Source: a virus. Taken from it: a stretch of DNA of 34,472 nucleotides. The translations under genes were made by a program, and so were the position numbers. Below, piece after piece: positions 23,551 through 27,656 of the stretch. The DNA lies in UHGV virus genome UHGV-0176895. One strand, given 5' to 3'. The notes beneath the pieces were generated by a model, which was not told the origin of the DNA, searched no databases, and saw only the letters and a list, made by a program, of their open reading frames with translations. Each line of letters begins with the position of its first letter. Positions within the stretch are counted from its first letter, which is position 1.

Positions 23551-25064
23551 GCACAAAATTTTATACCCTGCTGACGGATATTGGCGCGGCGAAACTTGCC
23601 AGCGCCGCCGCGCTCGGTGTGCCGCTAAAAATTACCCATATGGCGGTGGGCGATGGCAGTGGAGTATTGCCAACGCCGGACGCAAAGCAGACGGCACTGG
23701 TAAATGAGAAACGCCGGGCTGCGCTGAATATGCTTTATATCGACCCGCAGAACAGCAGCCAGATTATTGCCGAACAGGTGATCCCTGAAAACGAGGGCGG
23801 TTGGTGGATACGTGAAGTGGGCTTGTTTGATGAGTCCGGGGCATTGATTGCCGTGGGCAACTGCCCGGAAAGCTATAAGCCGCAACTGGCTGAAGGTAGC
23901 GGGCGCACTCAGACCGTGCGCATGGTGCTGATTACCAGCAGCACGGACAATATCACCCTGAAAATCGACCCTGCTGTAGTGCTGGCAACCCGCAAGTATG
24001 TGGATGACAAGGCACTGGAGCTGAAGGTGTACGCGGATGATCAGATGGCAAAACATCTTGCCGCACCGGACCCGCATTCACAGTATGCACCCAAAGAAAG
24101 TCCGACATTTACCGGAACCCCCAAAGCGCCAACGCCAGCGGCGGGGAATAATACCACGCAGGTTGCGACCACTGCGTTTGTACAGGCGGCACTGACGGCC
24201 CTTATTAATGGTGCGCCAGCCACGCTGGACACACTGAAAGAAATAGCCGCAGCCATTAACAATGATCCGAATTTCAGTACCACCATTAACAATGCGCTGG
24301 CACTAAAAGCACCGTTGTCGAGTCCGGCACTCACCGGAACGCCAACAGCCCCCACGGCGGCGCAGTCGGTCAACAATACACAGATTGCCACTACGGCTTT
24401 TGTGAAATCGGCGATTGCAGGAATGGTGGGTTCTGCACCTGCTGCACTGGATACACTGAACGAACTGGCGGCGGCACTGGGGAATGATCCGAACTTTGCC
24501 ACGACAATGCTTAATGCGCTGGCAGGTAAACAACCGCTGGACAATACGCTTACCAATTTGAGTGGAAAGGATGTAGCTGGTCTTCTCACATACCTTGGTT
24601 TGGGAGAAGGTTCTGCATTACCTGTTGGTGCGCCTGTTCCGTGGCCTTCTGAGACACCTCCAACAGGCTGGCTGAAATGCAACGGTGCGGTTTTTTCTGC
24701 TGAAGAATACCCGGAACTGGCAAAGGCTTATCCGACAAATAAATTGCCTGATTTACGAGGTGAATTTATTCGTGGCTGGGATGACGGGCGTGATGTTGAT
24801 AGTGGACGCGCTTTATTAAGCGAACAACTTGACGCTATGCAAAATGTTACGGGTTCTCTGATTGATAACACTATGGGGTCAGCTTCCTCAGCATCTGGAG
24901 TTTTTAATGTTGGTTCTAGTTCTGGGGTTAAATATGCCGCTCCATCAACTGGTAATGCATTTAGTTACTATGGTGTGACACTTGATTTATCCAGGAGTGC
25001 AAGAACATCAGCAGAAACAAGGCCACGTAACATTGCATTTAACTACATTGTAAGGGCAGCATGA
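23547..25064 (+). CDS. H: Tail fibre protein H (current orientation), 505 aa; C-terminal about 150 aa lies inside the invertible segment
   Basis: Conserved N-terminus, internal tandem repeats, then a variable C-terminus starting at the crossover site within codons LTYLGLGEG. Confidence 0.85.
   Translation: MSTKFYTLLTDIGAAKLASAAALGVPLKITHMAVGDGSGVLPTPDAKQTALVNEKRRAALNMLYIDPQNSSQIIAEQVIPENEGGWWIREVGLFDESGALIAVGNCPESYKPQLAEGSGRTQTVRMVLITSSTDNITLKIDPAVVLATRKYVDDKALELKVYADDQMAKHLAAPDPHSQYAPKESPTFTGTPKAPTPAAGNNTTQVATTAFVQAALTALINGAPATLDTLKEIAAAINNDPNFSTTINNALALKAPLSSPALTGTPTAPTAAQSVNNTQIATTAFVKSAIAGMVGSAPAALDTLNELAAALGNDPNFATTMLNALAGKQPLDNTLTNLSGKDVAGLLTYLGLGEGSALPVGAPVPWPSETPPTGWLKCNGAVFSAEEYPELAKAYPTNKLPDLRGEFIRGWDDGRDVDSGRALLSEQLDAMQNVTGSLIDNTMGSASSASGVFNVGSSSGVKYAAPSTGNAFSYYGVTLDLSRSARTSAETRPRNIAFNYIVRAA
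24100..24540 (+). repeat. Divergent tandem duplication of about 220 bp within H, encoding two copies of an about 74-aa module
   Basis: Protein repeats SPTFTGTPKAP...NNALALKAPL and SSPALTGTPTAP...LNALAGKQPL read from the translation. Confidence 0.7.
24583..24608. other. Inversion crossover site L (TTCTCACATACC-TT-GGTTTGGGAGAA) inside H
   Basis: Its right 14 bp (24595..24608) are a perfect inverted repeat of 26416..26429. Layout is like Hin/Gin/Cin hix/gix/cix sites (12-bp half-sites around a 2-bp core). Confidence 0.8.
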
Positions 25065-25672
25065 TGACCACAAAAAAAATCACTTTGGATGAAAACGGAT
25101 TTGCCACAGAGGCTGGCTTCATTACCGTTTACAACTACAACGGAGAAACGCGGGAATATATTTCCACATCAACTGAATATCTTGCGGTTGGCGTCGGTAT
25201 CCCGGCATGTTCTTGTTTAGATGCACCAGTTACACATAAAGCTGGTTATGCAATCTGCCGTTCTGCAGATTTTAACTCATGGGAATATGTGTCAGACCAT
25301 CGCGGTGAAATCATCTATAGCACCGAAACAGGAGAATCGAAAGAAATCACAGCTCCGGGTGATTACCCCGAAAAAACAACCACTATCGCCCCGTTAACGC
25401 CATACGATAAATGGGATGGTGAGAAATGGGTGACGGATACCGATGCACAGCATAGCGCCGCAGTAGATGCAGCAGAAGCGCAACGCCAGTCGCTGATTGA
25501 TACTGCAATGGCTTCCATCAGTCTGATTCAACTGAAATTGCAGGCCGGGCGGAAGCTGACGCAGCCAGAAAACACCCGACTTAACGCTGTGCTGGATTAC
25601 ATTGACGCGGTGACGGCAACAGATACCAGCACCGCGCCGGATGTCATCTGGCCTGAACTGCCGGAGGCGTAG
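25061..25672 (+). CDS. G: Tail fibre assembly chaperone G (expressed orientation), 203 aa
   Basis: ATGA overlap with the H stop; position and size of a Tfa-type protein. Confidence 0.8.
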   Translation: MMTTKKITLDENGFATEAGFITVYNYNGETREYISTSTEYLAVGVGIPACSCLDAPVTHKAGYAICRSADFNSWEYVSDHRGEIIYSTETGESKEITAPGDYPEKTTTIAPLTPYDKWDGEKWVTDTDAQHSAAVDAAEAQRQSLIDTAMASISLIQLKLQAGRKLTQPENTRLNAVLDYIDAVTATDTSTAPDVIWPELPEA

Positions 25673-26063
25673 GCCATTCAATATCGAGTGCTGTTAAAGT
25701 ATTAATACGCATCAATAGCACGCGATATTTTTTCCATGCCAGTAACAGTTTCGTTTCATCATCTGTTGCCATACCTAAATCAACCGCATCCTGAAGCGGC
25801 GCTATTACATTCGTTGCCTCTGCTATCAGTGCAGATTTCTTTTCATCATTTATTAAGGCTAATTGTTCTGGTGTTGGAGAAGGACGATCAACAATGACAG
25901 GGTGACCGTTCTCACCACAGGTAATCATTTTTGTTACACTCTGTGAGTTAATCAGTGTTTTCCACTCTGATTCCGAGATTTCCACTGCATCATCAGGAAT
26001 ATTGGTGCCGTGAAATTCAGTCGAATAAAATCCGTTTGTCGATGCAGAATAAAAATATGACAT
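25644..26063 (-). CDS. Alternative tail fibre assembly chaperone (silent orientation), 140 aa
   Basis: ATG at 26063 (MSYFYSASTNGFYS...). Convergent with G and overlapping it by 29 bp; follows the alternative fibre C-terminal segment by 4 nt. Confidence 0.75.
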   Translation of the reverse strand: MSYFYSASTNGFYSTEFHGTNIPDDAVEISESEWKTLINSQSVTKMITCGENGHPVIVDRPSPTPEQLALINDEKKSALIAEATNVIAPLQDAVDLGMATDDETKLLLAWKKYRVLLMRINTLTALDIEWPTPPAVQAR

Positions 26064-26067
26064 TTCG

Positions 26068-26424
26068 TTAATATCCCATTGCAATGTAATACGCATCAGA
26101 AGATGCACCATATCCTGAACCGGGCGACACTGTAATATCAAATCCAGTGTTATGGACATTTGTCGCCGATACAGTCGGCTGCCCTGACGCGCCAGTAACG
26201 TTCAATGTAACTGTGACAGCAAGGACTCTTGAGAATGTCATCGGGAACCTCATCCCGTATGTTGAAGATACATTCGGGGAGCCATTCAACTGACCGCACT
26301 GTAAAATTAATCCAGACGGAAATTTTTGCGCAGCAGCCGTTGCGGTATTACTTGACGCGAACAGGCTCATATCAGGTATCTGATTCGCCCCTGTACCTAC
26401 ATTCCTTTTAGCCGCTTCTCCCAA
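26068..26424 (-). other. Start-less alternative tail-fibre C-terminal coding segment, in frame through crossover site R; fused to the H N-terminus after inversion
   Basis: Open frame on the minus strand with no ATG, running into site R. Inversion would give ...LTYLGLGEAAKRNVGTGANQ... Confidence 0.75.
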
Positions 26425-26462: not shown

Positions 26463-26467
26463 TCGGG

Positions 26468-26890
26468 TTAATGCAGCGTTGTAGTTGAGCTGGACTCTGC
26501 CATTGCCACTGTCAATTCATCGCCTTCGGCTGAGATCTTAACGGTATTACTTCCTTCTGATTTAGCGCCTTTTGGTAGACCTAGCTGATCATAGATACAC
26601 AAGAATCTTGAATCATTTATAAAGGTGATTTCTGTTACAGTCCCACCTTCAACGACCTTAGAGTCTATTGATTTTATCAAATTGATATCCTGAACATTAA
26701 TGTGCTTTATCGCATCCCAGTTAAGGCTGATGTCCACGTTATCCTTTTGCATCGTTATCACATGACCGGCCTTATGCTGGGTTGTGACTTTTCCATCAGG
26801 GCTCATCGTAATCTTTTGCCCCATGTGATAAATAATTTGAGTTCCGTCTTCGAGACACTCGATTTTTGGCTCTTTAGTAAAGTCGTTCAT
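26468..26890 (-). CDS. Cargo protein, 140 aa, unknown function, between the invertible segment and the invertase gene
   Basis: ATG at 26890 with AAGGA 5 nt upstream; AT-rich; divergent from the invertase gene across a 205-bp intergenic region. No motif recognised. Confidence 0.7.
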   Translation of the reverse strand: MNDFTKEPKIECLEDGTQIIYHMGQKITMSPDGKVTTQHKAGHVITMQKDNVDISLNWDAIKHINVQDINLIKSIDSKVVEGGTVTEITFINDSRFLCIYDQLGLPKGAKSEGSNTVKISAEGDELTVAMAESSSTTTLH

Positions 26891-27095
26891 GAAAATCCTT
26901 CAATTATCTGTTGCTGGAAGGTGCTAATCTACACGAATCCTTGGTTATGTATGTAATGAGGCTCTAGAAATCCACTTGAATATAAATAAATTTTTATGGT
27001 GTTGGCTTGTAATGCTCGCGTAGCTCTTTGTCAAAAGTGAAACTCTGATAACCTGGTTCTACTGACGAACAGAAGGATGAGCAGGAGATCGCTTT

Positions 27096-27656
27096 ATGAT
27101 TATTGGGTATGCACGAGTATCAAGTAACCATCAGGACACCGAGCTTCAGATGCAGGCTCTCAGAGCTGCTGGCTGTAAGTTAATTTTTGAGGAAAAGGCT
27201 TCTGGCCGTAAGACGAATCGACCAATCTTGAAGAAAGTGGTTGAGATGCTTGAACCCGGTGACGAACTGGTCATCTGGAAGTTAGATCGTATCGGTCGCA
27301 ATGTACTGCACGCATTATTGACCTTTCAGAGCCTCGCAGAACGCAATGTTAATATTCGTTCTATTACAGATGGCGTTGACCTGAGCACTGCCAGTGGGCG
27401 CTATAACTTCCGTAATATTCTCTCTGCGGCACAATATGAGTCTGATCTGAATAGTGAACGCACTCTGGCAGGGTTAGCGGTTGCCCGCGCTAAGGGGAGG
27501 ATTGGCGGACGTAAGCCTAAGTATACTGATGAGCACTGGGATGCGTTTGAACGGGAAATTAAGTCCGGCTGCTCACATCGTGATATAGCTCTCAAATATG
27601 GGGTCGGCCTGTCGACTCTCTACAAACGTTATCCGGCTCAGCAAGAGCATCACTAA
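27096..27656 (+). CDS. Serine recombinase, DNA invertase of the Hin/Gin/Cin/Pin family, 186 aa
   Basis: MIIGYARVSS with the catalytic Ser in the canonical position; C-terminal HTH (SHRDIALKYGVGLSTLYKRY); CAGGAG RBS. Confidence 0.9.
   Translation: MIIGYARVSSNHQDTELQMQALRAAGCKLIFEEKASGRKTNRPILKKVVEMLEPGDELVIWKLDRIGRNVLHALLTFQSLAERNVNIRSITDGVDLSTASGRYNFRNILSAAQYESDLNSERTLAGLAVARAKGRIGGRKPKYTDEHWDAFEREIKSGCSHRDIALKYGVGLSTLYKRYPAQQEHH

Follow-up and report, generated by a model that had tools for sequence, protein, structure and literature searches.

Does a P2-like prophage exchange the receptor-binding tip of its tail fibre by turning a segment of its own DNA around, and is the enzyme encoded beside that segment the one that turns it? 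The locus that raises this question lies in the virus genome UHGV-0176895 (34,472 bp, the whole stretch analysed, hereafter the window), where the tail fibre gene H and the chaperone gene G are followed by a silent second tip and chaperone and by a gene for a serine DNA invertase. An earlier interpretation made from the letters alone (the sequence-only reading) had described 24583-27656 as a complete host-range inversion switch with a Hin/Gin-family invertase. Our analysis makes it highly probable that the locus is a two-state site-specific inversion switch for the receptor-binding fibre tip of a P2-like (Peduoviridae) prophage, and we hold with much the same confidence that this switch is working now, or was until very recently.

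The segment is delimited by two crossover sites:

24583..24608, plus strand: left crossover site, TTCTCACATACC-TT-GGTTTGGGAGAA, inside H, core dinucleotide at 24595-24596
26416..26441, minus strand: right crossover site, read on the minus strand as CATTTTCAAAGG-TT-GGTTTGGGAGAA, core at 26428-26429

Each site consists of two 12-bp half-sites around a 2-bp core, and the two lie in inverted orientation, their cores reading TT or AA according to strand. They share a perfect inverted repeat of 15 nucleotides (nt) (100% complementary; arms 24595-24609 and 26415-26429, spacing 1805 nt), which is the longest within 23500-27700 and slightly longer than the 14 nt that the sequence-only reading had seen inside these 26-bp sites. 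The 14-mer TTGGTTTGGGAGAA occurs exactly twice in the window, once per strand; in dinucleotide-preserving shuffles the mean is 0.24 matches, even with two mismatches allowed. For scoring we used the hix/gix half-site consensus TTNTCNNAAACC, and as a positive control the scan recovered both Mu gix sites at 16/18. The left site matches this consensus at 17/18 positions and the right site at 13/18, the inner half of the latter being perfect (9/9) and its outer half matching at 4 of the 9 specified positions. Since the same scan found no further site of at least 13/18 in the window, the crossover layout is that of a simple two-site system. Among related loci (numbered with the prefix L), the left site is identical or nearly so in L001-L006 and L014-L018, and the right-site outer half is identical in all loci with this invertase (L001-L003, L014, L015, L018, L019); a Morganella relative (L009) has a similar right outer half (...AAAGG).

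A possible third site at 25856-25881 (AGGCTAATTGTT-CT-GGTGTTGGAGAA), as in a shufflon-like multi-inversion system, was rejected on account of three mismatches in the 14-mer, a different core and a poor outer half; it lies within the silent chaperone gene and is kept in L004-L007, and we judge the resemblance to be coding-sequence conservation. L014 represents the arrangement most often found with the identical invertase, and its inverted repeat (3068-3093 / 4321-4346) reaches into the segment by a further 12 nt or more at either end (…GGGAGACcttgtagacgcg); both alternative tips therefore share their first codons.

Across and between the sites lie the constant part of H and two tip-and-chaperone modules:

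23547-25064, plus strand: H, tail fibre, 505 residues (Pfam Phage_tail_fib at residues 1-150, Collar at 361-408)
23547..24594, plus strand: constant N-terminal part of H, codons 1-349, the same in both orientations (Phage_tail_fib)
24597..25064, plus strand: variable H C-terminus in current use, collar-domain tip (Pfam Collar, residues 361-408)
25061..25672, plus strand: G, a Tfa chaperone of 203 residues in the currently expressed position (Caudo_TAP, E 1.4e-31; PHROG 105, tail fiber assembly, E 4e-95)
25644..26063, minus strand: silent alternative chaperone, 139 residues (Caudo_TAP, E 6.7e-30; PHROG 188, E 8e-59)
26068-26424, minus strand: silent start-less fibre C-terminus, gp53-like tip (Pfam Gp53-like_C, E 5.5e-14)

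The two modules are convergent (Collar and Caudo_TAP on the plus strand, Gp53-like_C and Caudo_TAP on the minus strand), and their Pfam and PHROG matches bear out the gene content that had been proposed from the letters alone. The start of G overlaps the stop codon of H, the 3' ends of G and the silent chaperone gene overlap by 29 bp, and the sole start of the silent tip is a mechanical TTG located within the crossover site. A 150-residue version of the silent-chaperone frame is annotated in RefSeq for L004 and L005. Both modules are mosaic pieces that other phages carry as well: the collar tip with G (window 24584-25685) has ∼94% DNA identity to the stf/tfa genes of phages HK97 and HK106, and the alternative module has 96-98% DNA identity to the fibre/chaperone genes of Shigella phages SfIV, SfI and SfII.

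The reading frame answers the question of what an inversion would produce. When 24595-26429 is inverted in silico, H codons 1-350 are joined in frame to the silent tip, giving an uninterrupted H' of 469 residues (...AGLLTYLGLGEAAKRNVGTG...) in which codons 351-469 are the gp53-like tip, supplied by 26068..26427 of the minus strand, and the alternative chaperone begins 4 nt later. The in-frame swap of tip and chaperone that had been predicted thus holds in silico. The crossover core sits in H codon 350, at the junction of the constant and variable parts, and the homology of relatives breaks at this site: in L001-L004 and L006 the constant part runs collinear at 95-98% identity, and homology ends at 24607-24613.

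Does the segment turn in nature? We searched 5,426 complete Escherichia coli genomes with both the native and the in-silico inverted query, and aligned the loci that were retrieved. L004 (E. coli Br_178, a P2-like prophage) has the window orientation and is collinear with 23547-26441 at 96.9% identity, while in L005 (LD27-1) 24592-26429 is inverted at 98.7% identity. In L006 (ML35) the constant part of H is collinear up to 24609 and the segment is inverted, and in L007 (LR-50) the same cassette lies within an e14-like element adjoining pinE. Homology breaks at the crossover sites in every one of these aligned relatives, and the segment between the cores behaves as a unit in nature. Both orientations (L004 vs L005 and L006) are directly observed for the cassette beside classical invertases. 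Among the loci with an invertase identical to that of the window, the right flank is 99.6-99.9% identical and the contents of the segment differ, with the joins at the crossover core; the collar and G module is in the OFF position in L001/ET734. Different contents beside a near-identical flank, with breakpoints at the core, indicate recent recombination at the sites.

Invertible fibre segments are familiar from textbooks (Mu, P1, e14), and the comparison with them is instructive. In the Mu G segment with Gin, as in the P1 C segment with Cin, a constant fibre N-terminus is combined with two convergent sets of C-terminus and chaperone (S/U and S'/U'), and in Mu the inverted 26-bp sites are accompanied by a serine invertase gene immediately beyond the segment at the corresponding end, all as in the window. 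The sequence-only reading had recognised this Mu G / P1 C logic, and correctly so: all of the defining structural elements are present and in register. The Mu gix core is TC/GA vs TT in the window, and the Mu backbone contrasts with the P2-like one found here. Window positions 1-24000 are 93% identical over 87-89% of their length to Escherichia phage vB_EcoM-813R9 and Klebsiella phage KP12, and the P2-type gene order V-W-J-I-H-G ... FI-FII-E-T is annotated in L001-L006 and L014-L016. The assignment to a P2/186 backbone therefore agrees with gene order and with P2-like DNA similarity, although such a combination is not new, having already been described in P2-like prophages of enteropathogenic E. 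coli (EPEC).

The nearest parallels in DNA are the e14 P segment with PinE and the classical P2-like cassette of L004-L007, which are 97-99% identical to the window over 24592-26429 and have the same inner half-sites, the same TT core and the same two tip-and-chaperone modules. The difference lies just beyond the right site: in e14 and the classical loci a Pin-type invertase (74% identical to Gin) starts ∼55-65 bp past it, whereas in the window an orphan open reading frame (ORF) of 140 residues, ORF140, and a hairpin lie between; the outer half-site is TTTTCTTAAACG in the former vs CATTTTCAAAGG in the window, and the window invertase is 50% identical to the classical enzyme. Sequencing and polymerase chain reaction (PCR) have shown that both orientations coexist in single-colony cultures for e14 (AAACCTTGGTTTGGGAGAAGG) and for an EPEC Mu-like prophage (AAACCTTGGTTTGGGAGAA) (PMC4272514, Table S1), and the same was shown for two EPEC P2-like prophages, one with repeats TTGTTTGGGAGAAG and one with 215-bp repeats beginning ACCTTGGTTTGGGGGAAGG (PMC4272514). 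The window repeat holds the same core as the experimentally inverting e14 and EPEC Mu-like repeats.

The P2-like loci of EPEC E2348/69 (Goldberg et al. 2014, PMC4272514) also occupy the same position as the window segment, between H/G and the sheath gene FI, and their repeats have the same core; one EPEC locus has three repeats and four states, as against the two sites of the window. More generally, an independent survey of P2-like phages reports DNA invertases as frequent occupants of the Z/fun hotspot, together with inversion of neighbouring genes (bioRxiv 10.1101/2024.10.15.618418). As a host-range switch, therefore, the locus adds nothing conceptually: it is of a known kind in a known genomic position. 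The Mu-like segment of this EPEC strain (L030; NC_011601.1, 2746500-2754500) is reported to invert although its own invertase is a 31-codon remnant, and must therefore depend on the enzymes of the two P2-like prophages acting in trans.

What distinguishes the window is its enzyme:

27096-27656, plus strand: serine DNA invertase, 186 residues, PinL-type lineage (Pfam Resolvase and HTH_7)

The Resolvase domain spans residues 2-135 and HTH_7 residues 138-180. The protein matches PHROG 125 (DNA invertase) at E 1e-69 and the Mu Gin structures 3uj3 and 4m6f at E 5e-55, gapless over residues 1-185, and is thus closer to Gin than to the gamma-delta and Tn3 resolvases (E 1e-18 to 1e-21; gamma-delta, E 4e-21). 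The ORF is intact, and the catalytic residues Y5, R7, S9, R42, D64, R65 and R68 are all present. The DNA-binding motifs are also kept, namely the GGR minor-groove motif and the STLYK recognition helix (GRIGGRKPK and GLSTLYKRYPA in the window align with GRIGGRPPK and ALSTLYKKHPA in Gin).

Gin is the closest solved structure, at 49% protein identity, and the Hin/Gin-family assignment of the sequence-only reading holds as a statement of homology; the enzyme nevertheless belongs to a separate lineage and, as detailed below, fails several signatures of Fis dependence. Its identity to Gin, to the L004 and L006 enzymes and to the two from EPEC reaches only 49-50%, whereas the classical enzymes are 68-80% identical to one another (as the EPEC enzymes are to Gin and L004), placing the window invertase outside the classical cluster. 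Its closest named relatives are phi80 PinL (72%) and the invertase of phage SKA5 (68%), with which it shares the invariant helix-E motif GRYNFRNILSAAQYESDLNSERT; both come from lambdoid or Mu-like rather than P2-like backbones, and both are without ORF140. Further relatives are found in a Morganella P2-like prophage (L009, 87%), in a Salmonella Mu-like element with a Mu-like baseplate (L011, 86%) and in an enterobacterial myophage (L012/L013, 70%). In L009, L011, L012/L013 and SKA5 the invertase gene directly follows a fibre and chaperone, or chaperone and fibre-tip, pair, and in SKA5 this pair looks invertible; in phi80 pinL is truncated, and only fibre pseudogene fragments lie beside it. The best evidence that PinL-type enzymes are fibre invertases is this synteny, conserved across four backbones. 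The lineage is found in E. coli, Citrobacter, Klebsiella, Salmonella and Morganella, and we conclude that it is a widespread, uncharacterised lineage of fibre-associated invertases.

How would such a switch operate? Late transcription would run through H and then G, producing, in the current orientation, H with its collar-domain tip followed by the 203-residue chaperone. The serine invertase would break the DNA at the TT core of each 26-bp site, rotate one half-site pair and rejoin the ends, thereby inverting 24595-26429. Because the non-palindromic TT core sets the relative orientation of the sites, inversion is the expected product. H codons 1-350 would then continue into the gp53-like tip, followed by the 139-residue chaperone, and the collar module would be left without promoter or start; the predicted recombinant junctions are ...CATACCTTGGTTTGGGAGAAGCGGCTAAAAGG... 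and ...TAATGCAGAACCTTCTCCCAAACCAACCTTTGAAAATGG.... The PinL-type enzyme encoded in cis is the presumed flipper of the segment, and the two tips would be expected to confer different host ranges. That the invertase is active in this particular prophage is something we infer, because no flipped copy of the exact prophage was found.

A number of observations weigh against a switch that is in use, and three of them (the weak right outer half, the missing flipped isomer and the decay of relatives) give substance to the strongest of three alternatives: that the switch is frozen or degenerate, an inherited architecture that no longer flips to a meaningful extent, with a defective outer half-site or with a PinL-type enzyme mismatched to Pin-type sites. 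The right-site outer half, with its 4/9 consensus positions, is weak. An exact-sequence lookup in a collection of 15 billion proteins finds H and does not find the predicted H'. All-against-all BLAST of nine loci with the same invertase yields no exact-inversion pair, only partial inverted modules at 70-91% identity, and a scan for the 32-bp right site with its flank, able to catch a flipped right junction, gives no hit in IMG/VR and one in JGI metagenomes, a deletion variant. Every inversion with experimental support, those of the EPEC P2-like loci included, involves classical-type invertases, our literature search found no functional study of the PinL-type lineage, and the window enzyme is without residues that Hin needs for activation by Fis. 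Relatives also show decay, in the form of IS1 within L002, mismatched repeats in L003/L019 and L018, the truncated PinL of phi80 and a recombinase pseudogene in L005. Short Logan contigs with near-identical invertases, which we checked for breaks at the crossover site, have differing contexts and are uninformative on orientation. The completeness claimed by the sequence-only reading thus applies to the structural elements, all of which are there; as a property of the working switch it is an extrapolation, since the search for a flipped isomer came up empty both for this prophage and for its invertase lineage.

Other evidence makes a frozen switch improbable. The weakness of the right outer half is softened by the EPEC loci, which invert in vivo with half-sites at 5/9 (PMC4272514). 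The invertase gene is intact with all its catalytic residues, and the exact protein is listed in 1283 blocks of a larger assembly collection. Recent recombination at the site is implied by segments of differing content that meet a 99.9% identical flank at the core.

A second alternative accepts the inversion and takes it away from the neighbouring gene: the segment would be flipped mainly in trans by the invertases of other prophages (e14 Pin or classical P2-like enzymes), and the PinL-type gene would be a passenger of the ORF140 module. In L004-L007 the same sites do indeed serve with classical invertases. The EPEC Mu-like locus still inverts (∼60% forward) with only a 31-codon invertase remnant, indicating that invertases act in trans, so that a resident classical enzyme could flip the window segment; and ORF140 and the invertase gene move as a unit between P2-like and Mu-like backbones (L017). 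However, PinL-type genes adjoin invertible fibre segments in four myophage backbones and several genera, a pattern hard to account for unless they act on those segments, and the DNA-binding motifs are conserved with Gin and Hin, which leaves this alternative distinctly less probable than a frozen switch. The last alternative, that the recombinase has nothing to do with the inverted repeat and is a resolvase or mobility function of a low-GC insert (ORF140 plus recombinase), can draw on the low GC content of the whole of 24550-27700, on 97-98% identical recombinases on short contigs without visible fibre genes (L022, L023) and on one recombinase in an IS26-flanked plasmid fragment, and is scarcely credible in view of the far stronger match to Gin than to resolvases (E 5e-55 vs E 4e-21), the tail-fibre-assembly remnant retained beside the gene in that plasmid fragment and the strong synteny with fibre segments.

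We return to a two-state switch, presumably served by its own invertase, and to a further question: if the enzyme flips the segment, how is it controlled? Residues are numbered here as in Gin unless the protein is named as Hin; Hin numbering is that of Gin plus one, as verified on an alignment that includes a Hin sequence, the comparisons with Gin and L004 being independent of it. In Hin, F105 and M109 hold the inactive dimer, and F105N gives Fis-independent inversion in vivo (PMC4513852); H107Y bypasses Fis, and K47, K/R48 and K/R51 of helix B contact enhancer DNA (PMC3798978). Hin H107 and Gin M114 belong with F105 and M109 to the helix-E residues that keep the dimer inactive until Fis acts. 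The Fis-contact patch in helix 1 of the DNA-binding domain comprises Hin Q151, R154 and L155, is uniquely conserved among the aligned Hin, Gin and Cin, and is sensitive at L155, where substitutions leave almost no inversion (PMC3798978).

The window enzyme does not keep the Fis-contact and helix-E residues of Gin and Hin, and it fails three residue-level signatures of the Fis/enhancer-dependent subclass. In helix E, N104, R106, I108 and Y114 are present in the window enzyme and in all 116 aligned members of the lineage, in contrast to F, H, M and M in Gin and L004; F105 (Hin F106), required for the active tetramer, is retained. In helix B the window enzyme has K46, K47 and E50, whereas Gin and L004 have K or R at position 50; none of the 116 lineage members has a basic residue there, the choice being among E, D, N, A, T, G, S, I and Y. 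In the Fis patch it has A150, R153 and E154, as against Q, R and L in Gin and L004, and some more distant members of the PinL lineage keep Q-R-L. The recombinational enhancer of this subclass has two Fis sites within the 5' end of the invertase gene. At the position of the proximal one Gin and L004 read GT(A/G)TCAACAAATGAC and the window reads GTATCAAGTAACCAT, with the C at +7 lost, although the same scoring missed the gin distal site. Synonymous conservation is higher in invertase codons 1-20, which is also expected from translation initiation.

N104, R106 and Y114 sit where single changes free Hin or Gin from Fis, position 50 is without a basic residue in the whole lineage, and this sub-branch is without the Fis-patch Leu. 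For these reasons we put forward, tentatively and from residue comparisons, that PinL-type enzymes may form a natural clade of tail-fibre invertases activated without canonical Fis/enhancer contacts. It is likewise a possibility, if a rather doubtful one, that the enzyme encoded in cis works without canonical Fis control. Enzymes of this type could be constitutively permissive, or under other control.

Several features around the invertase accompany this lineage:

26468-26890, minus strand: ORF140, orphan ORF of 140 residues, between the right site and the invertase
26438..26463, no strand assigned: perfect 26-bp palindrome AATGGTCACCTAT/ATAGGTGACCATT, which overlaps the right site at its outer end
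26891..27095, no strand assigned: AT-rich divergent intergenic region between ORF140 and the invertase (GC 0.39-0.42; promoters presumed)
27753..27780, plus strand: terminator-like hairpin and T-run downstream of the invertase (CCGCGCTACAATCTGCGG then GGATTTTTTT)

The sequence-only reading was silent on the 140-residue ORF and the palindrome, as it was on the weak right outer half-site and the non-classical lineage of the invertase. ORF140 has no family match in Pfam, NCBIfam, PHROG or PADLOC. It forms one 90% cluster among 5.8 billion proteins and has 5 representatives among 1.84 billion; AlphaFold models it with a pLDDT confidence of 43 from the single sequence and 60 with four sequences, and Foldseek gives no match at E ≤ 0.001 in PDB or BFVD. 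The protein is beta-rich, with no signal peptide by eye. On a 1.1-kb contig (L020) a distant homologue (38% identical) neighbours a gp25-like gene, and another adjoins DUF genes; these contexts give no hint of function. In every locus examined (L001-L003, L014-L019, including the Mu-like backbone of L017) ORF140 is next to the invertase gene, and this constant linkage indicates that they travel together as a module. This module takes the place of the classical invertase immediately beyond the crossover core, the outer half being CATTTTCAAAGG in place of the classical TTTTCTTAAACG. ORF140 could be an unrelated moron; that it is an accessory factor is much less likely.

As minus-strand RNA the palindrome would fold into a stem of 12 bp (-22 kcal/mol, z -3.5), with a U-rich tract (UUUUCAAAGGUUGGUUU) after it. 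Its 26-mer has no match in 100 shuffles of the window with three mismatches allowed, and it is kept in every locus with the invertase module, without a mismatch or, in L016, with a single one. Its probable role is that of intrinsic terminator of ORF140, and it may also be an operator or protein-binding element. A consensus scan of 26891..27095 found no convincing sigma-70 promoter. GC content is 39-52% across 24550-27700 vs 54-62% in the flanking backbone, and this low GC across the variable fibre parts, ORF140 and the invertase indicates a mosaic insert at the P2 Z/fun hotspot, between G and FI.

Of the 5,426 complete E. coli genomes only 3 hold the ORF140 and invertase module, and a remnant flanked by IS26 lies on a plasmid. 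This remnant (L024; plasmid pMCR10_2641_2, 5689-6650) has a 96%-identical invertase and a truncated tail-fibre-assembly gene enclosed by IS26 copies on a resistance and heat-resistance plasmid of 198 kb, and appears to be a prophage fragment captured by IS26. In L002 (E. coli E41, CP069707) IS1 lies at 3694-4391 within the invertible segment, directly behind a shortened H, and of the G-type chaperone on its far side only a fragment is left, an example of switch decay. A 97%-identical recombinase is found on a 2.6-kb contig (L022; Logan SRR33471210) by small ORFs that include an Imm8 immunity protein; fibre genes are not visible on this contig, which may represent another use of the same enzyme or merely a prophage edge.

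These results bear first on annotation: the second chaperone and the tip without a start codon are real genes, and two receptor specificities should be ascribed to the prophage, one like the Stf of HK97 and one like those of SfI, SfII and SfIV. Beyond this, the interest of the locus lies in the PinL-type lineage with its non-canonical regulatory residues, in the orphan gene linked to it and in the swapping of modules at the crossover sites. If PinL-type enzymes do act without canonical Fis contacts, the loss of the topological filter would permit recombination between sites on different molecules, and such intermolecular recombination would fit the many fibre modules that are joined at the core to a 99.9% identical flank. 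They would then be a natural counterpart of the hyperactive mutants made in the laboratory, and a plausible driver of the shuffling of fibre modules between phages.

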